In this document: positions 9,952-62,952 of the stretch, piece after piece
Position numbering within the stretch: position 1 is the first letter of the stretch
Layout of the letters: every line of letters begins with the position of its first letter
Source of the DNA: Candidatus Absconditabacterales bacterium
Lineage (GTDB): Bacteria; Patescibacteriota; Gracilibacteria; Absconditabacterales; Absconditicoccaceae
Assembly (NCBI GenBank): GCA_937958645.1
Contig: CALGNI010000038.1
Coordinates: 3,647 to 67,646 of the forward strand
DNA length: 64,000 nucleotides
Direction: 5' to 3'
The notes under the pieces: generated by a model
What the model was told of the DNA's origin: nothing
Databases searched by the model: none
What the model saw: the letters and a program-made list of their open reading frames with translations, nothing else
Program-made: the position numbers and the translations under genes

Positions 9952-11781
9952 ATGATCAAAAAACTCCCCCAACACCTCATCAACAAACTCAAAGCTGGAG
10001 AAATCGTCGAGCGTCCTGTTTCTATCGTGAAGGAACTCGTGGAAAACTCGCTTGATGCCTGAGCTACGCAGATCAGCATGGAGATTTCTGCTTGAGGAAA
10101 AAAGTTGATTAAGATTCAAGATAATGGAACGGGGATGACCAAAGAAGACCTTCAGATGAGTGTGGAACGTTATGCAACATCCAAACTAGACGAGACAAGC
10201 GATATTGAGATGATCGAAAGTTATGGATTTAGGGGTGAGGCCTTAGCGAGTGTGAGTGAGGTGAGTATCTTTCGTATTCAGACTCGTCAAGCAGCAGAAA
10301 CTGAATCAGGGGTCTGATATGAGCTGTATCGCGCTGAAGGAAGATATGATATCAAGCAAATTCCGTTTGCTCGTGAGCATGGAACGACCGTCTTCGTAGA
10401 AGATGTGTTTCATCATATCCCAGCTCGTGAAAAATTCCTCAAATCTGATTCGACCGAACGAAATTATATCAAGAAAATGTTCTTACAATACGCCCTGGTG
10501 CATCGAGATAAAAAACGAGAGCTCCTCAAGGATGGAAAATCGATGTATAGCTTTCTCCCTGCCGATAGTCTCATGGAAAGAGTGCTTTCACTCACCAAGA
10601 AAGATCGAGAAAAAAATCTAAAAACCCTTGCCTATCAAGATAAGCAATTAGAAATATTTGGTGTAGCTGGAGACGCGAGTTTGCATTTTGCGACTGGCCA
10701 ATATTTTTGGTTGTTTGTGAATGGACGTCCTGTGCAAGATAGAGTCTTAAAGTCTGCTGTGATGGAGGCCTATAGAAGGCAGATCGTGCCAGGTAGTCAT
10801 CCTTTCGTGTGTCTTTTCCTGGAGATAGACCCGAGACAAGTAGATGTGAATGTTCATCCAAGAAAACTCGAAGTAAAATTCCTCGACCCATGAAGCGTGC
10901 ATACCCGCGTCAAAGAAACGATCCGTGAAGCAATAGGAAGTCAAAAAGTGAACTATGCTGCCTTCAATCAAGAAGCAGTGAGGAGTAGCTCTCATCCCAG
11001 CTCAGGTTCAGGGAAAAGATTCAATGCTGAGCAATATCGTCAACATCAGTCTGGATTAACAGAATCTCAAATTCAATGATTGAAGCAGGTATGATCGATG
11101 AAAAACTGAGCTGAAGCAATGATGTTTGGTGCCGCAGATATGGATAAGGTTCATCTGGGGCAAAGTCAGTTGTGAACTGAGCTTATGGTCGTGGGTGAGC
11201 AAGAATCATATACCCTGATTGGCCAACTCCGACAGAGTTATATCCTTCTCCAAGCACCCGATGCATTGGTCTATATTGACCAACATGCTTTAGCAGAAAG
11301 AATCGCTTTTGAACAAATGAAGAAAAAAATAACCGCTGATGGCTTTAGTTCTGAAGTGCTTCTTCAGCCCCTAAGTCTCGAGATCCCCAAAGACATAGAT
11401 ATTGATGAGAAGATTGAACTCTTATGAACGATAGGGTTTGATGCTTCGGTATTGAGTGAGCGGAAGCTTGTCATCTATTCAATTCCTCGTGTGTTTCATG
11501 AGTGGAAGGTGGATATAGAATTGATCATCAATCGAGTCTGGTGAGCCAAGCACAACGCCCAAGGTCCAGAACTTTTTGGTCTGATGGTGGATGAAATGGT
11601 AGGGATGAAAGCCTGCAAAGCCTCAATCAAAGCAGGTCAAAAGCTCAGTCCCCAAGAAATGAAACAGCTCGTCCAAGATGGATTTACCTATATCCCAGGA
11701 ATGTTCGTCTGTCAGCACGGAAGACCAAGCGCAGTAAGGATTGAGAAGGGGAATGTGGATGGGTTGTTTGAAAGGCATTAG
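9952..11781 (+). CDS. mutL: DNA mismatch repair protein MutL
   Basis: '[24 protein letters not shown]', 'IQDNGTGM', '[10 protein letters not shown]', '[12 protein letters not shown]', and C-terminal 'CQHGRPS'. Five track ORFs join in one frame through TGA. TAG stop. Confidence 0.95.
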
Positions 11782-17304: not shown

Positions 17305-17853
17305 ATGAACTTAGAGAAACTCTTCTGATCTAGAACGAAAACCGACATACTGAAGTACCTTGTCTTTCGTAGGCAAGGAATTTCTGTTCGTGCATTTGAG
17401 ACAGAGTTAACACGATCTTTCCCCGCTATCAAGAAGCAAATCGATCAACTAGAAGAGGCTTGAGTGATTAGAGTAACTAAAGACAACAACAGACGATCGA
17501 TCTTTATGGTCGATGGAATCGACGATTATATAAAGAGTATTTTTATGTATACACTCAAGTTTGATTTGAGTGAGTATTTTTGATGAATGCCAAAAGATGT
17601 TGATAAATATTTCCTAGGAAAAGTATTTGGAAATGATTTTGATATGGATCTGGTGATCGTTCATCAAGCATCAGGAAAAGAAAAAATACCTCAAATGAAG
17701 CAAGATATTTCAACGATCTTCGAAAAATACCTCATCCTCACCGTAAACGTGGTGTTTATGTCTGCAGATGAGTTCCAAAAACGTAACAGACTCGCTGATA
17801 AGTTCGTTCTTTCATTGCTGGCAAGTGGTAAGCCGCAGCCTGAGGTGGAGTAG
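17305..17853 (+). CDS. winged-helix DNA-binding domain protein
   Basis: ATG 17305 is in frame with track ORF 17587-17853 through TGA. 'TKTDILKYLVFRRQGISVRAFETELTRSFPAIKKQIDQLEEAGVI' looks ArsR/MarR-like. Confidence 0.5.
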
Positions 17854-17954
17854 GAGGAAAGTAGAAATGAATGGAGAAGGAAGAATGAAGAAATGTGTCG
17901 AAAAGAAAAGACCGAGGAAAATATTCCTTCGGTCTTTTGTTTTAGATAATAAGA

Positions 17955-19016
17955 TTATTGTGGCATCATACCTAATCGTTTCCAAAAAATAGAATTGATT
18001 GATTTTATGCACAATTCAAGAAATGGAGTAATAGTAGTCCACTGCCATTTCTTTTTTGTGAACTTTATTCTTTTGTTTCCTATTCGACAAAATACTACGG
18101 TAATTAAGAAGCTCATAGACACAGAAAATATAGTCACTGCAATGAGTTGAAATGAGTGATTTGTTTCAATTATTCGACCCCACATTAAAAAGATTACTAA
18201 TGAAGCTGATAATATACCAGTTAATAGCTCGATCTCCAATAGTTTTTCGATAATCACCTTGCATCCATCTTTGCATACATCATACCCACCCAATACGATG
18301 ATGAAAGGTGAGGTAGGAATCACGAATAAGCTGATTACTAATGCTATTATCATTTTGCAGATCATCTTTGTGCCAGACAAAAGTGAGTACATTTTTACTT
18401 TAAGAATTCCAAATTCTTCAATAGCTATCAATGCTTCTTGATACAGGAGAGAAATTCGTTTTTGAACTTTGATTTTAGCATTTTCTTTTGACAAATTTTT
18501 TTCAGCAACTTTAGATTTAATATGTGATTCTTCACTTGTAAAATCAAGTTTTGTAAAATTAAAAGACAAATAACTTAGAATGCTGTATTCTTTAATTTCT
18601 TTTTTTGTATAAATGAAGAAAGTTATTACAAACATGAAAGATGTAAAGTAGAAAATTTCGATAATCACTTTTGCTGTTGTGCTTAAGAAGTCAAAGTTAA
18701 TAAATTGTGATACTTGAACAAAAATGAATGAAAAAAATATAGAATTTATTATCAAGCTAATCGTAACTAATTTATCAGATACTCTTGCTAGCTTTTTCAC
18801 TTTTTCTTCAGCCGATGGTTCTACATTGGTTTTCTTAAGTTTGTTTTTAAGTTCTTTGAAATGGTATCCTAGGTAGGCTATGCAGCCAATAAGGATTGAA
18901 GCGCTGTACACAACTATCATATTGGTAGTTATCAGTCTCATAATAGCAATAGCTGCTAAAACGATGATAGCAGAACAACATCCCGCTATGAGTTGTTTGT
19001 TTGTTAATGACGTCAT
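17955..19016 (-). CDS. hypothetical polytopic membrane protein
   Basis: Intact 353-aa track ORF with multiple hydrophobic segments. No family recognised. Confidence 0.55.
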   Translation of the reverse strand: MTSLTNKQLIAGCCSAIIVLAAIAIMRLITTNMIVVYSASILIGCIAYLGYHFKELKNKLKKTNVEPSAEEKVKKLARVSDKLVTISLIINSIFFSFIFVQVSQFINFDFLSTTAKVIIEIFYFTSFMFVITFFIYTKKEIKEYSILSYLSFNFTKLDFTSEESHIKSKVAEKNLSKENAKIKVQKRISLLYQEALIAIEEFGILKVKMYSLLSGTKMICKMIIALVISLFVIPTSPFIIVLGGYDVCKDGCKVIIEKLLEIELLTGILSASLVIFLMWGRIIETNHSFQLIAVTIFSVSMSFLITVVFCRIGNKRIKFTKKKWQWTTITPFLELCIKSINSIFWKRLGMMPQ

Positions 19017-33031: not shown

Positions 33032-33105
33032 AGGGGGGTGGTGTAATGGGAACACAGAGGTCTTCGGCACCTCGGTTATCAGTTCAAATCTGATCCTCTC
33101 TGCCA
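33032..33105 (+). tRNA. tRNA-Arg (anticodon UCG), CCA encoded
   Basis: Hand-folded cloverleaf: acceptor agggggg/cctctct (with G3.U70 and G5.U68), U8, D stem gtgt/acac with loop aatggga, anticodon stem gaggt/acctc with loop cTTCGgc, variable ggtt, T stem atcag/ctgat with loop ttcaaat, discriminator g, cca. Confidence 0.8.
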
Positions 33106-48270: not shown

Positions 48271-49236
48271 ATGAAAAATACACCATATATTGAAAACGCT
48301 CATATAAATATTGAGCAAGAGTTTAGATTGCTTAATGATTCATGAGAACTTGTTATAGAAAAAGATGGGATGAGTTTGCCAGAGTATATTCACTATTCGA
48401 TAAAGCTAAAACCTGAATTAACTTTATTGTTGAAGCAATGATACATCCAAATACACCCAGAATTTAATAAAGATCAGTTTGAAGTTGCAAGCTATGGGAA
48501 GAATAGTTTTTCATCAGTGAAAGATATTATGCTTACGACATATACTTGATTGTCTGAAGTGCTCGCTGAGCAGTGAGAAACCATAGATTTACGTGTACTT
48601 CCACCTGAAGGACCCGCGATATGACATACTGAATATAAACCCTATTATCCATTGTTAGCTAAGAAAGTAATAGAACAAACTGGTGATAGTAATTCGATTA
48701 AGAAATTTGATATTACTTCATGTCAGTTCAATATTGATGATCCTGAGTTGACTCTGTATAGAGCAATTGCAGATGATTTTCATCAGCACGGATTTTTTAA
48801 TTCGAAGTATGGCTCTTTGAGATCGCCACATAGAGCAAAGATTTTCAAAGATATTATTGATAGAATTACAGAAACCTGAATGATATCTTGAGGAATTTAC
48901 CCTCCATATCTTGAGTGAGTCACACTAGAAGAACCTTGATTTCTACCATTTATGCCCCCAAGTTCCTATGATAGAATGTTACGTAATGATGAACTACTAA
49001 AGTATTTTCTTGATTGACCAAATACTCAACATTATTTAGAAATTAAAAGCAGCGACATTAACAATTCAGGACATTACCTTGAAATCAAACCCTTTGATTT
49101 ATGAGTAGAAAATCATGGACTAATTGAATCTGGGGACTGAAGTGAGATTATTTCAAAAAGATATGATACAATTTACAAATATTTAATTGATACTCATGAT
49201 GAATATGATAACAGAATACCTCAATCTGAGATCTAG
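48271..49236 (+). CDS. divergent carboxylate-amine ligase-like protein (GCS2-like, tentative)
   Basis: 'IEQEFRLLNDSGELV', 'IHPEFNKDQFEVAS', 'LEIKPFD' loosely follow YbdK/GCS2 motifs. Track ORF 48652-48879 is in frame. Confidence 0.4.
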
Positions 49237-49268
49237 TACATTAAAAGTTTTATTAAAAGATACTTTCC

Positions 49269-50078
49269 ATGATATACCCAAGAATAGAAACTATTAACTC
49301 TTGAGTCCCTTGACCTACCACAACAATTATCTGAGGAATTCATGGGAATGAACCAACGTGATTTGAGTTGATTCAGATGCTAAAAGATTCGTTATGTATT
49401 GATGCTGGAGTAGTAACACTAATCTCAGCTCATCATGAGGCAAAAGAAAAGAATGCAAGATTCATCGATAAAGATCTTAATAGAAGTTTTGGTAAGAGCG
49501 TAGACGAGACCATTGAGTCTCGTCTTGCTCAACTCATATCTCCATATATCACAAAGGCTAACTATGTACTTGATGTCCACAATACAGTAAAAAACTCCTC
49601 ACCGAGATTTTGTATTAGTGAACATGAGGAGTTTGCGCAGTTTATTGGTATTCCTTTTTATGTTTGATGATGCTGAGAGAAATTTATGTGAAGTACCGAT
49701 CAATTTGCCGATCGTGAGTGAGCAAAGTGATTTTGTCTGGAAGCTTGATGGATTCATGAGAGTAAAGACCACACTCAGTTTGCTTACGATTCGAGTATTA
49801 ATCTTTTGAAGTCTTTTGGTAACATAGAATGAGATCCGAACAATTATTGATCAAGCAAGAAGTTGGTAATGGATATAATGTATCACGCTACCTGAAATTA
49901 TGAAAGTAAACGTGAGTTTGCTGATTTCGATCCAGTAAAGGCAGGGGAAATGATTTGAGTTGATGAAGATAGACCGATCATGGCAACTGAAGATTGATTT
50001 ATCTTATTTTCCAGCATGGAAGCAAGAAGAGGTGAGTTGGGCTTTATGTTTTTGAAGGAGAGGGGTAATTCTAAATAG
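49269..50078 (+). CDS. succinylglutamate desuccinylase/aspartoacylase (AstE/AspA, M14-like) family deacylase 1
   Basis: 'IIGGIHGNEPTG', 'IDKDLNRSF', 'VLDVHNT'. Track ORF 49368-49667 is in frame. Confidence 0.7.
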
Positions 50079-50251
50079 TGAAGCTGAGTACACTTGAGAA
50101 TTAAAGTAAACTCATAGTACTTGATAAGTTAATGTTGTGTTAGTTTTTGCTGTTATTATTTTTAACAACAGATAATATATTATGTTATTGATTTTATGTT
50201 CTTTATATAAATAAATTCTAAGTCTAGTTATTTTATTCTCTTCTATTAAAA

Positions 50252-51961
50252 ATGCTCAATAATTCAAAAAATAACATCTTATGAAAGTATAAAAAGTATT
50301 TTCTAGAAGAATGAGAATGAAATGCTAGTGATGTAAAAAAATATTTTGATGGACTTTATGATAGAGTTTTTTCCAAGTTTCAAGAATGAAATCAAGCGTT
50401 AATGAAGAAAAATGATAATCAATCATTGCGTTATATTGATAGTATAAAAGATGAAACCTTCCCTGAAAAAGGATTAAACATTGATGAGGTCTTAGAAAAA
50501 ACAAGTAAGGCATTTTGATGAGCATTGAGACGACATTCAACTCAAACCGCGTATAACGTTTGACCTAGTCCAATTCTTCCTACTGTTGGTGTGAATGCAG
50601 TAGTAAACTTATTTAATCCTAACTGTTTAATGGATGAGGTTTGTTGAGACTTTATGGTGACTGAAAAAAAAGTAGTCAAATTTTTGAGTGATATCGCGTG
50701 AATAGATTACAATAAATCAGACTGAATGTCTACTTATTGATGAGCATGAACTTTAATGTATGCTATCAAGACTAGCCTTTGAAAGGTCTCTAGTACATCA
50801 TTTTCACAATGAATCCGTAATGATTATTACGTACTTACTTGAGAATCAAATCATTATTTTATCACAAATATATGCTGATTTCTTTGAATTTGAACAGATC
50901 AATGTATTAGGATACCTTCAATAGATCATGGAATTATGGATTTAGTAGAATTAAGATCAGTCTATGAATCCCTGCTTAAGGAAGATAAGAAGGTGATTTG
51001 TATAATAGCTAATTGATGAGAGACTATTAATCATGCAATTGATGATTTATCAGAAATAACAAAAATAATCGACAACCTCACTAAAATATATGAATCAAAC
51101 AGGCCCCATTTACATTTAGATAGTGTAAATTGACGATGTTGGTTAACATTTCAGTGATATGATTTCGAAGAAAATCAATTAAAGATCAATGAAATAGATT
51201 TAAGTAAAATTCGTAAAGCCTATACCTTACTTTCTAAAGTATACCTTGCTGACTCTTTTTCAGCAGATTTTCATAAAACATGACTATGTCCTTATACCTC
51301 AGCTTTTTATCTTGTTAAAAATTTTGAAGATTTAAAGCATATTCAATGAATTGAAAGTTATAAGAAGGATATTTCTCGATGAGAAGGAATTAATTTAAAA
51401 ACATCTATAGAGCATTCTAGATCTTGAACATGAATATTAAGTGCATATGTTTCAATATTAACAATGTGAAAAGAATGATTTCAAGCGTACTTGAGTACTT
51501 TATTCAATAGTTGAAGGAATATCAAGAACGTAATTTTAAATAAATATCCTGATAAGATTGAAATTGTAAATAAATTGTGAAATCGATTTGTTAATATTAT
51601 TGTACTTAAATTCTTTAACAATCAGCCTGAATTTGAAGATCTATGTAGGTCTAGCGATGAAATCAAATTGAAATACAATCAATTTGCTCGTTGATACTAT
51701 GAATTTTGTCTGTCTAAAGTTAGAGAATGAAATTCAATGTACCCATATTTATGATACATTAGTAATTATACACATTTAGGAGAAAAAACCTGATTGGTCA
51801 CTTTTAAGATCTATGGAATGTCAGTTAACTACACCAATAAAGATTATACTTATTTTGTGAAATCAGTGGTTCATTCGTTAAACGAATACAAGAAAACAAT
51901 GGCTAAATGATCAAATCGCAAGACTATGCTTACCAAAGAAAAAAGGCATACTTTAAAGTAA
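50252..51961 (+). CDS. group II PLP-dependent decarboxylase (aromatic amino acid/Tyr/Glu decarboxylase-like)
   Basis: 569-aa table-25 ORF with about 38 TGA. PLP-lysine motif 'SADFHKTGLCPY', and 'YGGAGTLMYAIK'. TAA at 51959. Confidence 0.7.
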
Positions 51962-51995
51962 AGGAGTAGTGCTATTTTAAATCTTATGACATAAT

Positions 51996-52766
51996 ATGGA
52001 TAAGATTATAGAATTTTATTGAACAAGATCTAAGAATGAGGTTGGTATTCTAAATACAGTTCTAGATGATCTGAATGAACTCTTAGTAAATGTTGATAGA
52101 TGAAATTCTCACAATATTTCATGTATATTATATTGATCTTTAGCAACCTATGACCAAACGAAAAATTCCGATATTGACGTAATGTTTATGAAGAACGGAA
52201 AATCATCTAAGGAATTGTTTGATCAATTGAAATGATGACTGATAGATATTTCAAAAAAAAACAAACTAGAAGTTGATGAAGAAGTCCCGTTCAAGAGTAA
52301 GTTGATATTCAGTCATAACGAAATTTTAGAGTCTTTGTTAGCAAAATGATTTCCAAACATAGATTGAAAAATAGAAGTTCCAAATATCATTTCAACTAAG
52401 GATCTTAGAAAAAAATCCACAAAAATTAGATTATGAACCAACATTATAACCACGCCAAATATTTGAATTTTCCATTCAGTAAGTGAAAAAGAATTTTATG
52501 ATCAAATAAAGTATAGATGATGATTGCTCTTACAAAGCTTGGCTAGAAACCTCTTTACACAAAATTTTAAAAATCAAAAGATCACTCAGAATGACCTTCT
52601 TGAAGTGTTGGCTACTAGCAATTGAAATGAATGAAGGAAGCATCTCTGATATAAAATTGAAAGGCCTTTTGTAAGAAAATATTTAGTTAACTTATTGGAA
52701 AAAAAGTACTCCAATCAGGAGTTAGATAGCATGGAAAATAGTTTATGAAGTCAAATATTTTTATAA
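51996..52766 (+). CDS. nucleotidyltransferase (Pol-beta superfamily) domain protein
   Basis: 'ILYGSLATYDQTKNSDIDVMF' matches the GS...D.D NTase motif. Confidence 0.55.
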
Positions 52767-52779
52767 TATACTTAAATTT

Positions 52780-53595
52780 ATGAAAATTAATTTACAAATA
52801 CTTTGATCTTGATGATCAATCCCTACGCCTAGAATATGATCAAAGAGTGAAATATCAAAATTGGCAAGAGAAGTCTGACATCCATATAAGAAGAACTCAA
52901 GCTGTCTGTGAATTCCTGAAATTCATGCACTTATTGATTGTCCCGAAGATATATCTGATTCATTAAATAAAATAGACTTTCCTAATGTAAAGCACTTATT
53001 CTTAACACATTGGCATCCTGATCATACATTTTGATTAAGAGTGTTGCTTTCAAGCGTATTCGATCCAATAGATAAGAAAATTGATGAGCCAATACAACTT
53101 TACTTTCCAAAAAAAGTTTATCAAGATTTAAGACAACATTACCCTTCAATTGATTATTTTGTTGATGAAATGTGATTTTGAGTTGTGAATTTCCTAGAGC
53201 ATTGAGAATCAGTAAATATTTGATGAGTTAGCATCACAACTATATGATATTCATGAGAATGATCATGGGTAAATTGATATTTAATTGAGTCAAACTGAAA
53301 GCGTGCTTTATATTCACCTTGTGAGACAATTTTATTCGAACAATTTGAAATTAATGATTTGGATATACTTATTACTGAGTGTTGAGTTTTTTCTTTTGAT
53401 AAGGTGAAAACTGAAATATCTTTTCCAAAAATGATCAAAAATATAGAGAGATTACAGCCAAAAAAAACGTATATAACCCATATTGAGGAAGTTGAATTAG
53501 CGAGATGGGGGTATGATTACTTGCAAGAAATGAAGGAAAAATATTCAGATATTCCTTTCGAATTCGCTTTAGATTGACTAAAAATAGACTTATAA
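52780..53595 (+). CDS. MBL-fold metallo-hydrolase
   Basis: 'ILGSGGSIPTP', 'LFLTHWHPDHTFGL' (HxHxDH). Confidence 0.7.
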
Positions 53596-53596
53596 C

Positions 53597-54955
53597 ATGT
53601 CAAAAAGTGTAACTATAGTCTGATGGGGAACAAGTGCAGCGATAGCTGCATTGAATTACTACAATGAATGATATAACATTGAAGTTTATACTAAGTGACC
53701 AGAACCTACGTTAGACAATATTTCATCATCGGATATTGACTTTTATGCTTCATCAATGACTTGATGAACTGATATTCAGCGTTTTATAACTTGAATTGAG
53801 TGAAATCCATGGAATTTTTGTGCTTTTAGTTCACACCAATGCGAAGACTGGTCTAAGATGTGGAAAACTACAATTTCCGAATGATGATGGTTAGAAAAAG
53901 AGGCCTCGCTTTATTCTAAAAAGATGCAAAATAAAATTAAAAATAGAGCTTTATTTTACAATAAAATGTGAATTGAAGAGCAAACTACTAACTATAATAA
54001 ATGGATTATTAAAAATAAGGAAAGTTTATCATTACGAAAAAAATGTATCATTGACTCACCAGAGCTATTTAAATGAACTGAAATACAGTGATTTGATTCT
54101 GGTGTGTTAAAACTCTTTTTGAATCAGAAATATTTTGAAAAAACATATTTCAAGTTCAAGAGACTTGATCTTTTAGCTAAAAAATTGACGTTTAAAAGTA
54201 TCGTAAACTGACATGAGATGTTTTGATTTCGAGAAAAATGAATAAATATATCTAAATTTACTTATCTATTGGTAAAGATTAAAGACCTTTTAATGTCAAA
54301 TTGAGTAAAATTTTATTTTGACAATGAAATTAAAAGCATTTCCTTAAATCGTAAAAAAATTATTGAATGAATAGTGTTGAGTTCATGAGAGGTAGTTCAT
54401 AATCAAAATTTTTCATTTCATTTGTGAGCTTATAATTCTAGTTCAAAAATTAATGCAGAGTTACAAGACATTGTTCCAGTTTGATGATTGTGGTCAATTG
54501 TTGAGATAGGAGACGAAGTCGATCCATTCTATCTTAAACATCCAATGAAACTTCACACGACTAAAGAAGGAGATATCTTCTGACGAGATATTAATATTTC
54601 CAGGATAGATCATCCAAATAAAAATTTATTTCTAGCATGATATTGATATATCGTGAGTGAGCATGCATGAAAACAGAACAGTGATATTGAATTTGCAAAA
54701 ACTAGACTTCATTCTCGATTTGAAACGGAGATTTGTAGACGGTTTAAGAAGAAAGATATTAAATCTATCAAACACATAGAAAATATTTGTTATAGGTCAT
54801 TTACACCAACGGACAGAGAGACATTATATGCATATGAAACATGAAAGTGATGAAAAGCAATATTCTGCTCAGGTTGAAATACTTGAAGCACTACAATTAG
54901 TTTTAAAGATGCAAAACTATGTATTGACATATTGAATAATAAAGTTAAGAACTAA
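53597..54955 (+). CDS. FAD-dependent oxidoreductase (DAO/amine-oxidase-like)
   Basis: N-terminal dinucleotide fold 'VTIVGWGTSAAIAALNYYNEGYNIEVY'. C-terminal 'FCSGGNTGSTTIS'. The start lies 1 nt after the MBL stop codon. Confidence 0.55.
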
Positions 54956-54980: not shown

Positions 54981-56291
54981 ATGGAATGAAATGACAAAAA
55001 TTTACCTAATGGTTATGAATCTACTCCTGACGATGAGAAAGTTACATTATGAAGTAAGAATTCTTTATTAGATTCATTACAATTGAATCGAGAGGAATAT
55101 TTGAACAATGCAATAGATACTGCAGAATCAGAGAAAAAAAAGGCATATTTTATGAGAATAAAAAAATTATTAGGATTGAAGGATTTATCTAAAGAACCAT
55201 GAAATCCTATCGCATTAATCATTGATAGTATAAAAAATGATGAATTTTATAGTTCTTTTGAAGATATTGAGGCTTCAGAAATTGCTTCAGAATGGGCGAC
55301 GTTTGATGTATTTAATTTTCCTGAGGACCATGTTGCTAGGAGAACATCAGATAGTTATTTCTTGTTAAAATCTAATAATGTTAGTGAAAGTATATTGCTT
55401 AGACCTCATACTTCGATCGTCCGATATGACTATTTAATGACGATGGATTGAAAGAAAAAACTAGAAGAAGAAGGGGAGATTAAGATATTATCATCTTGAA
55501 AAGTATATCGTGTTGATACTTTGGATCCAACTCATCATGAATGTTTTCATCAAATTGACTGATTGAGAATTGTTAAAAAGGACAAAGAAATTATTACACA
55601 AGAAACATTAAAAGATGTTTTAACAGTTACAATTAAGGCAGTTTTTGGTGACGATGTAGAGTTTAAATTTTATGAGGATAGCTTTCCATATACAGTTGAG
55701 TCATTAGAAGCATATGTTAAATTTGAGGATAAATGGATAGAAGTTTTAGGCGCATGAATAGTGCATCCTTCAGTTTTAGAGAAATTATGAATTAATTCTG
55801 ATGAATATAACTGACGGGCTTATTGATTTTGAATCGAGAGACTCGCTATGGCATTAAAGAAAGTGCCTGATATTAGAATTTTTTGGTCAGAAGATGAGAG
55901 AGTAACTAATCAGCGATGAAACTTTGAGCCGTATGAAGAAATCAGTAAATTCCCACCAGTTTACAAAGATATATCTTTAGTTGTTCCTAAAAATAAATTT
56001 GTTGAGGATACTTCTGAATGAGCTGATCCTTTTGATTTAAATGAAACAACAGAGTCAAATTTCTTTGAATTTTCAATTATTGCTAGAAATGTATGATGAG
56101 ATCTTATTGAAGCAGTAGAAATTACTGATATATTTAAGAATGATGCTAAATTTTGAGAGGAGTTGATGTCTATAACATTAAGAATTACGTTTAGATCATT
56201 AGAAAGAACTCTTACAAACGAAGAAATCAATAAAATGTACTTTGATATTAGACATGAAATTGAAAACTGATTAGGGTATGAATTAAGATAG
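54981..56291 (+). CDS. monomeric phenylalanyl-tRNA synthetase-like protein (PheS catalytic core fused to an FDX-ACB domain)
   Basis: 'FNFPEDHVARRTSDSYF', 'LLRPHTS', motif 2 'GKVYRVDTLDPTHHECFHQIDGL', motif 3 'AYGFGIERLAMAL' (TGA at 55824 and 55830), then 'FPPVYKDISLVVP...ITLRITFRS' (FDX-ACB). 436 aa. Confidence 0.8.
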
Positions 56292-56331: not shown

Positions 56332-57138
56332 ATGGATGAAAATATCATACGTTCTCTAATAGGACGATGAATGACCGATAAGGAAGCCATAATATACTAC
56401 GCGCTTCTGGAACTATGAAGTTCTCCTGCGAGTTCAATTTCGAGATATTTAAATCAAAATAGAACTACAGTCTATACAATACTAAAAAGAATGAAAGAGA
56501 GATGAATTGTTCAAGAGTTAAGATCAAAAAAAACTTTATACTATTCAGTTATCGAGCCCGATAAGTTATTTAGAGACCTTTCCAATAGAGCGACAGCATT
56601 TAGCTCTATAATTCCTGAGTTATTAAACTTAAGTAAGTCTTTTGATTCTAAGCCAAAAATTCAATATTTTGAATGAAAAAAATGATTTCACTTTCTCATG
56701 GAAGATATTTTGGCAAGTAGATCTGATGTTAGATCTTTGCGAGGATCATCTCCGTTTTATACAGATGAGGAATTCATTTCTCGACTATCAAAATCTGCGC
56801 AAAAATATAGAGAAACTTTGCATAATAATTGATTTGTCTCTTATAGAATTTTCTGAATTAGTACTTTAAATACCCACATTGGGGATACATTAAAAAATGA
56901 TAAGTTATTCCGTAGAGAAATGAGAATAGTTGAAAATCCTATATTTGATATTAAAACAGATTTGGTGATATATGCAAAGGATAAGGTTTCATTATCATTT
57001 TTTGATGACAACTGAATTCCACATATTCTAATAATTACTAATGTAGCTATTTATAAAACTATGCTGAGCATCTTTAAGTTTCTTTGGTGAAGTTGAATAG
57101 AATATTCAGATGATTTTTTCCTTTGAAAGAAAAGATAA
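56332..57138 (+). CDS. TrmB-family transcriptional regulator
   Basis: 'GMTDKEAIIYYALLELGSSPASSISRYLNQNRTTVYTILKRMKERGIVQE'. Track ORF 56642-56869 is out of frame. Confidence 0.7.
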
Positions 57139-57214: not shown

Positions 57215-57485
57215 TTATTGCGTCGCACTGAAGTGATGAGGTAATATTCCGAATATATATTAAATCAGAAATATCAAAACTTTTTTATAAGTTATATATG
57301 ACTAAATAATTCTACTTCTTCGTGATAGTAATGCTTTCCCAGACTTTCGAACGAAAACAAAGGTCTATCTTCGAGGAACGAGAAGAAAAATTGGGCGAAT
57401 AGTTTCATTTCATGAAACCGCTAATCAAAGATTAGTACTCCGTTCGCTTGCGACGGAGCAAGTCCAATCTTAGATTTTTGTTTTT
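57215..57485 (+). mobile_element. structured element copy B (rearranged, intergenic)
   Basis: The core 57313-57485 aligns with copies A and C and carries an extra hairpin insert. The 5' hairpin module (57215-57255) is present but inverted and displaced by about 57 nt. Confidence 0.65.
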
Positions 57486-57546
57486 ACTTCATTGCAAATT
57501 TGAGTATCTATTATATAGATATGTTGCGATTTATAACAGTCATATT

Positions 57547-58287
57547 ATGATTCAAAAAGTACTACAAGATATTTGATTTAGTGATAGGGAGGCTAAAATT
57601 TATTTAGCTTGACTTGAAACATGACTTGCTCCAGCTAGTAAGATTGCTAAATATGCTAATGAAAGAAGAGTGACAACATATCAAACTTTGTTACAAATGT
57701 CGAAAAAACAATGGGTAAAACAGGTAGTTAAGAATAATGTGTCTCAATACGAGATGGTTTCACCAAAAGAGTTATGAACTATTTATACTAAGAGAGTTTG
57801 ATTATTAAACGAAAAAATACCAGAGATGGTTGCGTTAATGAACAACTTTTCTTCGAAACCTATTGTGAAATATTATCAATGAAGAGAACAGCTAAAAGAG
57901 CTATTTAATAAGATCGTTTTTGATTGATTTAAAATGAATCAGGATGATTATTTTTTAAGTTTTCTATGAACTTGAGACGTAGATAAAGAATTTTCTAATC
58001 GGCTTTCAACTGAATTTAAAAGATACAGACTCACTTGTCCTACTAGATCAAGATTTCTCCTTTCAGAGTGAGATCATGAATATTTAAAATATAATATGAA
58101 ACATCACGAATTTCGTTTGGTAAAAGACCCTATATTTAAAATTGCAAATCAGATAGTTATTTATGGAGATCTTAAAGTAGCTATTTTGATGTATAACGCT
58201 GACGAATTATCTTGAGTAGTTATTCAAAGTCAAAGTTTTCATGATGCTCTAAAATGAATATTTTATACTATTTGGAACGTGCTTTAA
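57547..58287 (+). CDS. TrmB-family transcriptional regulator
   Basis: 'GFSDREAKIYLAGLETGLAPASKIAKYANERRVTTYQTLLQMSKKQWV'. 246 aa. Confidence 0.7.
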
Positions 58288-58438
58288 GAATTCAAAACTT
58301 ATTAAATTTGTTTTGTTGTTTATTTTTACAACACGTAGCTTTTAAAAACCTTGTTATTAAATAAATCTCTACTAATATGAACTTTAATACTACATTGAAG
58401 TTTTTTTAGATAGTATTTATTTGCTCATATCAATTCAA

Positions 58439-59203
58439 ATGAAGCTTACAAAAAAAAGTTATGAACGTGAATCTCATAGTATTTGGAGGGCAATGTATAC
58501 TATGCAGATGGATACAATCAAAAAGTATGATTGCGTTTCTAAAGAAATTTTGAAATGAATTCACAAGATCGGTTTCGATCCCAAAAAAATACCTAATGCT
58601 CGTAATATATCTAGAAAATTAATATGATTAACATGATGGTCTCTTTGTGATGCAACTAGTCCTTTTATGACACATGATGATTGGTTTTCGTGTTTGATAA
58701 ATAAGAAATTTCCTGTTACCAATTATATTCGTAAACATAAGGATATACTCTATACTCCATTGCCAGATATGTTTCACGAATATTTTTGACATATGCCTCA
58801 AATGTCACTTGACTTCTTTGCTAATTTAGAGTATAAAATGGCTAGAATTCATCAGAATGCAATTTCATTAGATCTTAAGATAAAATTATATGATTTCTCA
58901 TGGTGGACTATTGAGTACTGAGTACTTATGGAAGATTGAATTCCAAAAGCAGTCTGAGCATGATTGTTATCTTCTCCTTGAGATTTGCGTGATTTTGTTG
59001 ATTGAAAATTTGAACTAAAAAGATGAACTCTTGCTTCTTTGATATCTCATAAGCCAAGTCCACATCAACAGCATAAATTTCTTTTCTATTTTGAATCACT
59101 TCAAGAGTGGGATACATTGCTAGATGAATACGTTGCGTTTTCAAAGAAACAATCTAAAGTAAAAGAATGATTGCCCTCTGGAAGGGTAATTAGTGATGAA
59201 TAG
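58439..59203 (+). CDS. phhA: phenylalanine-4-hydroxylase (aromatic amino acid hydroxylase family)
   Basis: 'PLPDMFHEYFGHMP' (iron His pair), 'WWTIEYGV', 'GAGLLSSPGD'. Confidence 0.8.
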
Positions 59204-60411: not shown

Positions 60412-61827
60412 ATGAAAGAAACATACTGAGCAGAAATAGAATTTTTCTCTACTAATAGCGATTGAAAATTAACATGAATTGACGCAGCATGATATGTTAA
60501 TAACTCACTAAATGATTCATCAAGCATGAAATTACATCATGATTCTTGTACGCATTTACTTGAGTTGAACTGAATCGTTTCTGAGGATTTGTCTCTAATC
60601 TTGAGTCAAATTGTGAATGACGTAGATGAGGCAATTAGATATGTTCATAACAAGGATCTTCATGTGCTGAATTCTTCAACACATCCAACTATGACTCATG
60701 CTGAAGCTTATCAAAATAATATTCGTAAGCCGATATATGCTTTATTAAGGCCTGCATCTCATGAAAATGATGTAAATATTCAGTCAGCATTACAGTCAAA
60801 TCATAGAAATTGGAAGCATGAACTCTCTTCATTACATGCTGGTATTCAACCATGGAATTCAATTGAAATAGACTCACTTCAAGAATCATACAATTCATTA
60901 CTTGCTACAGATTTCTTGATTCGTTATTTATCAGCAAATAGCCCATTTTTTGAAGGAAAAATTCAATGATGATTAGATAATAGATGGAGAATGTACGATC
61001 AAGAAAAGTGAATGTTATCAACCTCGATTTATAGTGACGAAACTAGTTGACTGATAAAAAAATATAATCATGATGAAATTACTCTTTCAAAATATCTTGA
61101 TGGTGTATTTTCTCAAAGCAATTTATTTTGAATATGAACTAAGAAGAGTATGTTTGTTCATCAATCACAAAATAAAATTTATGAAGTATTTTGAGATTCA
61201 GGAAAAGAGAAATTTTTGGACATAAATACTTTAAAAACACATACTTTAGATCCATTTGAATCATTCTCTTTTAATGAGCTGGCAAGATTTATACCATATT
61301 TCACTTCATTTTGAATTAGATTAGTTTGAGGAGAAACTATCACTTGAGAAGATTTTAAGCTAACGATGAAATATATACAAGAAAAAAATGAAACTAATCT
61401 GTTACGTATGTTTAAGAAGTATTGAATCAAATTTGCAGTTGAGTGAAGATGATGATCAACGGTGATGCCTGAATGAGATGATTATTCACTTATGTTATTG
61501 CCTTTAATACTCCAATCATATGCTTTAAAGGAGTCCTCTGCTGTAAATAAACGGATAAATCAGCAGCAATGATGATGGGACACGATCAGTAAATTAAATA
61601 AATCTGTTCTAGATTGATGAATTTCTGAAGAGTATACAGAATTTGCTTTGTGATTAATGGAAGTATTATTCGATTCTACTCAAGAATTGTGAGATTCTTC
61701 AGGGTTAATTAACCAATCAGTAGAAAAAGCAAAGGATATGATTAGACTCAATGAAAATAAGGCTCAAAGAGACATTAAGCTTTCAAAAGGTAGTGTTGAT
61801 AAATATACTGAGATGAATTTACTATAG
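60412..61827 (+). CDS. glutamate-cysteine ligase family 2 (GCS2) type carboxylate-amine ligase
   Basis: 'YGAEIEFF', 'LLELN', 'SLHAGIQPW', 'LSANSPFFEGK', 'AVEGRGG'. Track ORF 60589-60969 is in frame. Confidence 0.6.
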
Positions 61828-61836
61828 TATAGGCTT

Positions 61837-62952
61837 ATGATTATAAAATCTTGTGAAATCAGAGTTATATCAGTACCAATGAAGCAATCACTTCTTGTAT
61901 CTTTTGGTGAACTTAAAGAGATTCAAACATTAATTATCGAATTAAAAGATGAGGATTGAAATATTTGATATGGAGAAAGTATTTTAGTGCCATTTCTATC
62001 TTCTTCATTTACGAGTTTTGATGTGTGAAGAATTGTTGCAAAAAAGTATTTAAAACCACTTGTGCAATGATATGAGATTGATGATTATGAAGACCGGAAA
62101 AAAACAATAAGTAAGTTTTCAAAGCACTTAGATCAGATATATTGATATGAAATGGTGAAAGCTTGATTTAATAATGCTTGTATTCATTTGTTGGCAAAAA
62201 GAAAATGACTGTCAGTTTTTCAACTATTCGATGTCAATAAGTCAGAATTTAATGCGCAAGAATCCATTTCAATATGAGATTTTGACTCTATTTCAGCTGA
62301 ATTAGATATATTGAAGAAAAAATGATACACCTTTGTTAAAATAAAAATATGAGATAATAGTGACCTAGATTTGCTATCGACTTTAATCAAATCAAATCCT
62401 TCACTTAAGATTTGAGTCGATGCGAATGCTTGATTCAATAGGTGAGATACTGATTCGCTGCTATTATTTGCGAAAAATAGTTGAGTAGCTTTTATTGAGC
62501 AGCCATTCTGAAAAGAAAGGCTTTTTGACCATGCTCAACTCCAACTATGATTGAAATGTTGAGTGAGCTTAGATGAATCAATAATAACAATTAACGATCT
62601 TAGTGATGCCATTAATTTAGTTTCTTGTAGAATGATAAATATAAAAATTTGAAGAGTCTGATGATTGATGCATTGAATTAAATTGTATGAGCTTGCAGAA
62701 CGTAACCATATTGATGTACGAGTTTGATGAATGTTAGAAACCTGAATTTGAAGAATATATAGTCTTTGCTTATGAGCGCTGATCCAGAATGAAGTTTGAC
62801 ATGATATTTCTGAAGTAAATACTCGATATGAACAAGATATTGTGAAAAAATCATACAAAATAGAAGAAGGAAAATTGAAAATACTGAATTTAACTAAAGA
62901 TATCGAAATTGATTTTGAGGTTTATGAAAAATATACTATTGAAATCTTTTAA
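61837..62952 (+). CDS. enolase-superfamily enzyme (OSBS / N-succinylamino-acid racemase / dipeptide epimerase subgroup)
   Basis: 'FVKIKIG', 'IGVDANAGF', 'FIEQPF', 'VSLDESI', 'INIKIGRVGG', 'GGMLETGIG'. Confidence 0.75.

Follow-up and report, generated by a model that had tools for sequence, protein, structure and literature searches.

Phenylalanyl-tRNA synthetase (PheRS) is recorded in three forms in the searchable reviews and databases, with the single-chain form described for organelles only. The gene at 54981-56291 on the forward strand of a 64,000-nucleotide stretch of DNA from a Candidatus Absconditabacterales bacterium (contig CALGNI010000038.1; this whole stretch is called the window) codes for a chain of this design, a class II catalytic core as in PheS, the catalytic alpha subunit of the bacterial enzyme, continued by an FDX-ACB anticodon-binding domain. 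The locus thereby raises the question whether such a gene provides a bacterium with its only PheRS, with an additional copy or with an activity outside of translation. We lean towards the reading that the gene encodes an autonomous single-chain PheRS of mitochondrial type, which would act as a second enzyme beside the canonical two-subunit PheRS in Gracilibacteria. The gene is probably a second, extra PheRS copy and not the only one of the cell; among the roles offered by the original prediction, which had been made from the letters of the window, the auxiliary copy is the one favoured by the evidence.

A gene that appears under genetic code 25

The PheRS gene is genuine, provided that genetic code 25 is applied. 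From the ATG at 54981 to the TAG at 56291 the frame codes for 436 amino acids once TGA is a sense codon, the coordinates given earlier being exact; under table 11 the same frame shows 17 internal stops and no forward-strand open reading frame (ORF) of at least 80 amino acids is listed at this position. All 17 stops are TGA and fall on conserved glycine positions of PheS motifs 2 and 3, as in 'GA*IVHP' and 'Y*F*IERLAM' (asterisks marking TGA), and therefore code 25 (TGA=Gly) applies in the window, as it does in Gracilibacteria and Absconditabacteria. This holds throughout positions 1-64000, with TGA providing 47% of the glycine codons in 14 large ORFs of the window (GC content 34.8%) and between 47 and 83% in the window and related loci. 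A copy of this gene in the database, P0001, was translated with Trp for TGA and is 96% identical (17/436 differences). Standard annotation pipelines miss the gene (table 11) or leave it 'hypothetical', which is also the NCBI label of the family to which it belongs, here called type A, because the proteins stay below every curated cut-off. Nearly every gene of the window is fragmented by table-11 ORF calling, and the annotation of the window must be redone with code 25.

Domain architecture, conserved residues and predicted fold

In the code-25 translation, Pfam detects PF01409 (tRNA-synt_2d) at residues 75-311 and PF03147 (FDX-ACB) at residues 322-436, both far above the gathering scores, and the strings 'FPPVYKDISLVVP' and 'ITLRITFRS', quoted in the original prediction for a 436-residue protein, are present. 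The PheS class II core is thus followed by a C-terminal FDX-ACB domain in one polypeptide, with 146 residues after motif 3 forming the ACB domain as compared to about 35 in a canonical PheS chain. The N-terminal coiled-coil tRNA-binding domain of PheS (PF02912) gave no Pfam match in the window protein. The features of the gene are as follows:

54981..56291 (+): type A fused PheS+FDX-ACB gene, 436 aa, 17 TGA=Gly, stop TAG (ORF, code-25 translation, Pfam)
54981..55202 (+): N-terminal extension, aa 1-74 (no PF02912 match; TIGR00468 alignment begins at model position 49)
55203..55913 (+): class II PheS catalytic core, aa 75-311, PF01409 (Pfam E 6.4e-57)
55497..55562 (+): motif 2 region GKVYRVDTLDPTHHECFHQIDG, aa 173-194, with Arg177 (= E. 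coli Arg195) (E. coli PheS alignment, family conservation)
55683..55694 (+): Phe-ring pocket FPYT, aa 235-238 (E. coli F248-P-F250-T251) (alignment; F250->Y family-wide)
55812..55850 (+): motif 3 GRAYGFGIERLAM, aa 278-290, with Ala280 (= E. coli Ala294, specificity gate) and Arg287 (= Arg301) (alignment)
55944..56288 (+): FDX-ACB anticodon-binding domain, aa 322-436, PF03147 (Pfam E 2.5e-17)
56127..56135 (+): Asp383-Ile-Phe385 (= human mitochondrial Asp364/Phe366, G34 binding) (alignment; Asp 116/119, Phe/Tyr 119/119)
56169..56171 (+): Ser397 (= human Ser375, hydrogen bond to O6 of G34) (alignment; 119/119)
56286..56288 (+): C-terminal Arg436 (= human Arg414, hydrogen bonds to O6/N7 of G34) (alignment; 119/119)

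The core is homologous to canonical PheS (TIGR00468), with about 35% identity to the E. coli protein, and the alignment shows the motif 2 arginine, the H-T-S and FHQ segments, the FP(F/Y)T pocket, Ala280 and the motif 3 arginine to be kept, with all three glycines of motif 3 encoded by TGA. Two conservative substitutions, E210->D and F250->Y in E. coli numbering, run through the whole of type A. Equally, the ACB domain of the window protein is homologous to the B8 domain of PheT (TIGR00472), the beta subunit. In human mitochondrial PheRS (mtPheRS), G34 of tRNA-Phe is read by Asp364, Phe366, Ser375 and Arg414, and the exchange Asp364Gly abolishes activity (PMC7540514). The equivalents in the window protein are D383, F385, S397 and R436, positions that are kept in 116, 119 (F or Y), 119 and 119, respectively, of 119 family members. 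Such conservation is strong evidence, on the level of residues, that the family would bind a G34 tRNA in the manner of PheRS.

Among solved structures, those of human mtPheRS are closest to the window protein. An AlphaFold2 model of the homologue P0007, which is 60% identical and was correctly translated, reaches a predicted local distance difference test (pLDDT) value of 91.6 and a predicted template modelling score (pTM) of 0.87, and has human mtPheRS in its closed state (3CMQ) as best match in the PDB, with TM values of 0.73/0.74 over 438 columns along the whole chain; with bacterial alpha chains, the match is confined to the catalytic half of this model. A whole-chain fold like that of human mtPheRS is predicted on this basis.

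A bacterial fused family beside the mitochondrial enzymes

Type A, with a size of at least 120 clusters, is represented by the 120 best database matches of the window protein, all of which have the same two domains and are 52-62% identical to it; members with a name are assigned to Candidatus Gracilibacteria or to 'uncultured bacterium (gcode 4)'. With TIGR00468 (pheS) the window protein scores 166.4 bits (cut-off 237.45), and the type A proteins tested score 135-179 bits, none reaching the cut-off of 237; with TIGR00469 (pheS_mito) ten other members score 158-200 bits. The best NCBIfam score of the window protein, 207.7 bits, is obtained with NF051887 (SrmL, 'PheS-related mystery ligase'), a model with a cut-off of 300 on which type A proteins score 190-233 bits. 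The 31 proteins tested on SrmL, none of which reaches 300, comprised the window protein, 11 more type A proteins including the divergent P0123, type B, P0124/P0125 and 16 mitochondrial-type or short fused proteins, with 190-274 bits for the 30 proteins other than the window protein. Tested fused proteins of 345-390 amino acids were all of mitochondrial type. The alignment with SrmL, which concerns the model only, runs from model position 30 to 348 of 349 and includes the C-terminal domain besides the core; evidently SrmL has the fused layout as well. The existence of the model shows that the NCBI curators know of some PheS-related fused ligase; a description of a bacterial fused PheRS or of SrmL was not found in the searchable literature.

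An exhaustive search of 1.84 billion representatives for fused relatives returned, outside of type A, a type B (P0124 and a gene of locus L032) and a protein from Oligoflexia (P0125), and many fused relatives, including fern and Euglena sequences, pass the pheS_mito cut-off. In a neighbour-joining tree (224 core columns, 200 bootstraps), the comparison with mitochondrial-type and bacterial PheS that had been advised at the outset, the fused proteins split from all canonical PheS including the code-25 canonical PheS described below (100% bootstrap). Type A, type B and the Oligoflexia protein form a single clade (100%), which is sister to, and not inside, the clade of mitochondrial-type and short fused proteins (98.5%). 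A profile of the type A ACB domain scores 56-76 bits on type B and Oligoflexia, with a median of 52 on mitochondrial-type proteins and a median of 23 on PheT of the same lineage. As the core tree and the ACB scores agree, the fused layout is old and shared.

Two other histories have been rejected on these grounds. A recent capture of the ACB domain from the resident pheT does not fit, since the type A ACB is nearer to the mitochondrial-type ACB than to that of PheT. Equally, type A is not the PheS of the lineage with an added domain, since code-25 canonical PheS exists and is no nearer to type A than is E. coli PheS. Tentatively, and with considerable reserve, it may be proposed that the bacterial fused clade, present in Gracilibacteria and at least one Oligoflexia lineage, is an ancient, already fused sister of mitochondrial PheRS and that two PheRS systems, one editing (PheST) and one not, run in parallel. 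If true, mitochondrial PheRS would not have been assembled in eukaryotes from alpha and beta pieces, but would go back, by descent or exchange, to a bacterial or viral gene in which the fusion had already taken place. In any case, a sizeable and conserved family in bacteria that shares the organellar layout and is related in both domains offers a testable lead on the origin of mitochondrial PheRS. One fused relative returned by the search, a PheRS of 354 amino acids that passes the pheS_mito cut-off, is located at 10001-11065 of a 160-kb contig (L011; Logan SRR32456865), which resembles a jumbo phage or giant virus with genes on one strand, many small ORFs without assignment, Thy1, dCMP deaminase, eIF-1a-like and PcfJ.

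The mitochondrial-type domain organization that the original prediction had recognized is borne out by the grouping of core and ACB domain with mitochondrial-type enzymes and by the match of the homologue's fold to 3CMQ. With mitochondrial PheRS-M/FARS2/yeast MSF1 (TIGR00469; 3CMQ, 3TUP), the window protein shares the single chain of PheS-type class II core and FDX-ACB, the Asp/aromatic/Ser/Arg set that reads G34 and the lack of an editing domain. Unlike these enzymes, type A is bacterial, uses code 25, remains below the TIGR00469 cut-off (for the window protein, 180 vs 258) and forms a separate sister clade with type B and the Oligoflexia protein, and the window protein has no insertion between motifs 2 and 3. 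Furthermore, an enzyme of this type would be expected to work with no beta subunit in the same compartment or genome, whereas type A coexists with full-length PheT in two relatives. From canonical PheS, the window protein differs by the lack of PF02912, by its own ACB domain, by a TIGR00468 score of 166 vs 237 and by its separate position in the tree.

Canonical PheT and PheS in TGA=Gly bacteria

That no pheT lies adjacent to the gene, as noted from the start, is correct: neither the 64-kb window nor the surroundings of orthologues (about 100 kb) contained pheT or a second pheS. The near-universal B5 motif of PheT, written as a DNA pattern with glycine forced to TGA, was subsequently scanned over 185,579 species genomes, with about 0.5 chance matches expected. 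Four contigs matched, all labelled Gracilibacteria, Absconditabacterales or 'Peribacteria', and each of the four carries a full-length PheT of 810-863 amino acids with 12-34 in-frame TGA and an end-to-end alignment with E. coli PheT. One code-25 PheT scores 624 bits with TIGR00472 (cut-off 403), and PheT of the TGA=Gly lineage retains all five domains with a complete ACB. As a query, code-25 PheT retrieves more than 100 clusters, many of them named 'phenylalanine--tRNA ligase subunit beta [Candidatus Gracilibacteria bacterium]', and 'pheT' is among the proteins in the table of a Gracilibacteria metaproteome, where neither its sequence nor its length is given. Two metagenome-assembled genomes (MAGs) labelled 'Candidatus Peribacteria' (L012, L014) have 18-25 in-frame TGA in pheT, which indicates TGA=Gly and makes the label or the code assignment questionable.

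PheT and type A occur in the same genome in two cases. GCA_964618565.1 contains PheT P0294 together with type A P0067, both of which are also in the original ACD_3 bin. GCA_028685185.1 contains PheT P0288 (MDD2487687.1) and type A P0007 (MDD2487799.1), proteins that are 112 accessions apart and therefore belong to one MAG submission. The latter genome holds PheT, type A and type B, the type B fused gene being located at 17585-18892 on the reverse strand of L032, 5 kb from pheT; its product of 435 amino acids is 46% identical to type A of the same genome and scores 246 with pheS_mito against the cut-off of 258. Genes for a NUDIX protein, asparagine synthase, a radical S-adenosylmethionine (SAM) enzyme and an M19 peptidase are its neighbours. 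Between the lists of the top 120 matches no co-occurrence on the same contig was found; P0447 uses the standard code, and P0405 belongs to an assembly for which no fused gene is known.

For canonical PheS, metagenome contigs were scanned with a class II motif 3 pattern in which three glycines were forced to TGA. Besides four GC-rich chance matches, six AT-rich contigs with canonical PheS genes were recovered, four of them full-length (332-404 amino acids) and two fragments, which end about 35 amino acids past motif 3, have no ACB domain and show TGA at conserved glycines. Along their entire length, the four complete proteins share about 40% identity with E. coli PheS; two of them were tested and pass TIGR00468 with 286-304 bits (cut-off 237). 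These genes represent three divergent TGA=Gly lineages, and once pheS is directly followed by pheT. With code-25 PheT and canonical PheS at hand, TGA=Gly bacteria therefore have an ordinary PheST enzyme. The pheS and pheT genes are mostly unlinked in these bacteria (pheT in L012, L013, L016 and L032; pheS in L024, L025 and L027) and adjacent in the L021/L022 lineage only; the pheST pair is otherwise highly conserved in bacteria. The searchable literature on pheT in Gracilibacteria held nothing relevant, with the Vampirococcus and Jaffe et al. papers lacking usable information on aminoacyl-tRNA synthetases.

Which enzyme does the fused gene encode?

That the fused protein is the sole, streamlined and monomeric PheRS, with the beta subunit lost, had been suggested, the points in its favour being the small genomes, the self-sufficiency of the same architecture in mitochondria and the absence of pheT or a second pheS from the window and the flanks of orthologues. 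This hypothesis is rejected on the basis of the TGA-forced PheT scan and the co-occurrence of PheT with type A: TGA=Gly bacteria possess full-length PheT as well as canonical PheS, PheT is common among Gracilibacteria and has been listed in a metaproteome, and in two assemblies it is found together with type A, all of which makes a sole PheRS highly improbable. The original prediction had itself named canonical genes combined with a loss of the Phe-binding residues as signs of a non-synthetase paralogue; the canonical genes are found in the lineage, but the Phe-binding residues of the window protein are kept. The main alternative is that a fused protein, type A or, in genomes that have it, type B, took the place of canonical PheS and acts as catalytic alpha subunit in the PheT heteromer, with an extra FDX-ACB domain accreted on alpha. 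An intact PheT is kept in type A genomes and needs a catalytic partner, canonical pheS does not adjoin pheT in L012, L013, L016 and L032, the TGA-as-Trp signature occurs in 0 PheS-only representatives among the 150 nearest, the type B gene of L032 lies just 5 kb from pheT and three PheS-like genes are many for a reduced genome. Nevertheless, we regard such a replacement as unlikely. Unlinked pheS and pheT are normal in the group, and canonical pheS stands alone in L024, L025 and L027. Four further points tell against the replacement and equally support the preferred reading of an autonomous second PheRS: three deep TGA=Gly lineages possess a canonical PheS, the PF02912 coiled coil that alpha employs in the heterotetramer is missing from type A, code-25 canonical PheS is no nearer to the type A core than E. 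coli PheS is and thus not specifically related to it, and a complete G34-reading ACB on both type A and PheT of the same genome would be redundant within one complex, which speaks for two separate tRNA-binding enzymes.

On the other hand, type A might be a PheS-derived ligase without a role in translation, comparable to SrmL, that serves neighbouring amino-acid or peptide enzymes, for example with another acceptor or by supplying an aminoacyl-tRNA-dependent transferase, as the original prediction had also considered. SrmL is the best NCBIfam match, the gene is part of an operon-like array of amino-acid-modifying enzymes, the nearest relative outside of Gracilibacteria, from Oligoflexia, is likewise close to an adjacent GCS2->MR_MLE gene pair, and genes for peptidases, ligases or radical-SAM enzymes are repeatedly found close to type A or B. 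In disagreement with this, none of the 31 fused-clade proteins tested reaches the SrmL cut-off, the invariant G34-reading residues imply tRNA binding, the contexts vary by genome with just the GCS2-MR_MLE pair common to the Oligoflexia locus, and the sole clear operonic context, Phe/Tyr biosynthesis, fits an ordinary Phe-tRNA ligase. We therefore judge a non-translational ligase to be improbable as well. The autonomous single-chain PheRS as second enzyme draws on the architecture, the conserved residues, the fold of the homologue, the phylogenetic position and the coexistence with PheT. Several observations weigh against it. The E210->D and F250->Y substitutions across the family and, in the window protein, W->R and F->Y beside Ala280 could alter the specificity; the window protein scores 180.2 bits with pheS_mito, below the cut-off of 258.35; the predicted structure is that of the homologue P0007 and not of the window protein; the phylogeny is a simple neighbour-joining tree, in which long-branch effects are possible; and co-occurrence with type A in one genome is shown for PheT only, not for canonical PheS.

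As an autonomous enzyme, type A would be active as a monomer, independent of PheT and specific for Phe and tRNA-Phe. By homology with human mtPheRS, the class II core would activate Phe with ATP, which might be held by Arg177 of motif 2 and Arg287 of motif 3, with the Phe ring placed between Phe235 and Tyr237 in a pocket closed by Ala280. The FDX-ACB domain would read G34 of tRNA-Phe via Asp383, Phe385, Ser397 and Arg436; tRNA binding would swing the ACB domain from the closed to the open state, and Phe would be transferred to A76. With no B3/B4 editing domain, Tyr-tRNA-Phe would not be clearable in cis. The coexistence with PheT points to the maintenance of two PheRS designs, one of them without proofreading of Tyr-tRNA-Phe, in some of the smallest bacterial genomes, and raises questions about fidelity, about Phe/Tyr metabolism, with aromatic amino-acid operons in two lineages, and about a possible insensitivity to inhibitors or analogues.

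Duplicated or auxiliary synthetases are found in bacteria, for example the resistant IleRS2 or TrpRS2 and stress-induced copies of ThrRS or LysRS. Like these, type A would be a second enzyme for the same amino acid, often of another evolutionary type and with a specialized gene neighbourhood; unlike these, it differs in quaternary design (one chain vs alpha2beta2) and is without editing. The second copy could serve as a back-up, as an analogue- or inhibitor-insensitive copy or as a supply of Phe-tRNA coupled to aromatic amino-acid metabolism.

Gene neighbourhood and the aromatic link

The PheRS gene is the seventh in a tightly spaced array of same-strand genes, with a 25-bp gap to the gene upstream, and the upstream gene order is the same in the related locus L001. 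The neighbouring features are:

48271..54955 (+): six upstream genes, unknown protein of 321 aa, AstE/AspA, pyridoxal phosphate (PLP) decarboxylase-like protein of 569 aa, nucleotidyltransferase, MBL-fold protein and Rossmann-like protein of 452 aa (ORFs, Pfam)
56332-57138 and 57448-58287 (+): two TrmB-family regulators (Pfam)
58421-59203 (+): biopterin-dependent aromatic amino acid hydroxylase (Pfam)

Further downstream, genes for an aminotransferase, GCS2, MR_MLE and a second AstE/AspA protein follow. The TrmB regulators and the hydroxylase had been named correctly in the original prediction; the 'FAD oxidoreductase' assigned to the 452-residue protein directly upstream (53597-54955, forward strand) is at most putative, as Pfam gives no match for this protein at E<=0.01 and only its N-terminus is GxGxxA-like. 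The search for a T-box or leader RNA of the PheRS gene gave no match, and a promoter scan returned fewer sites than in shuffled sequence.

The 'aromatic cluster' in which the gene had been placed is real in two of about six contexts and not a conserved property of the family. The second case is L002 (GCA_017973835.1, 620-14526), where type A, flanked by the genes for chorismate synthase and chorismate mutase, is part of a complete shikimate/Phe/Tyr operon. Elsewhere type A follows dnaE and precedes radical-SAM genes (L004, GCA_964553745.1), or it is accompanied by a TPR protein and a phosphodiesterase (L006), by ATP synthase and dCTP deaminase (L010) or by conjugation-type genes (L018). A conserved biosynthetic cluster around the gene was accordingly rejected, with the GCS2->MR_MLE pair alone common to the Oligoflexia locus and the other contexts differing. 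The aromatic amino-acid link fits a Phe substrate, but is not family-defining.

Several observations on these loci can be added. The shikimate and Phe/Tyr operon of L002 is an unusual biosynthetic capacity for a bacterium that belongs to the candidate phyla radiation (CPR). Directly downstream of type A in L004 (11412-15924), a 40-residue ORF, a 243-residue protein and three radical-SAM enzymes, one with SPASM, resemble a cluster for ribosomally synthesized and post-translationally modified peptides (RiPPs). In the Oligoflexia MAG GCA_019694465.1 (L009, 2753-11245), P0125 is near an adjacent GCS2->MR_MLE pair as at 60412-62952 of the window, and the MR_MLE proteins of the two loci match at E 1e-41 to 1e-51; the common pair could reflect a block transfer or a functional link. 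Within 43043-63928 of the window, amino-acid and peptide enzymes accumulate, namely an ornithine/diaminopimelate/arginine decarboxylase, an M19 dipeptidase, an S-Me-THD/DUF917 protein and the two AstE/AspA deacylases along with the group II PLP decarboxylase-like protein, the nucleotidyltransferase, the MBL-fold protein, the Phe hydroxylase, the aminotransferase, the GCS2 ligase and the MR_MLE epimerase, a gene set that looks like a salvage or small-molecule pathway. The sole RNA gene of the window identified by ARAGORN and Rfam is a tRNA-Arg(TCG) at 33032-33105 on the forward strand.

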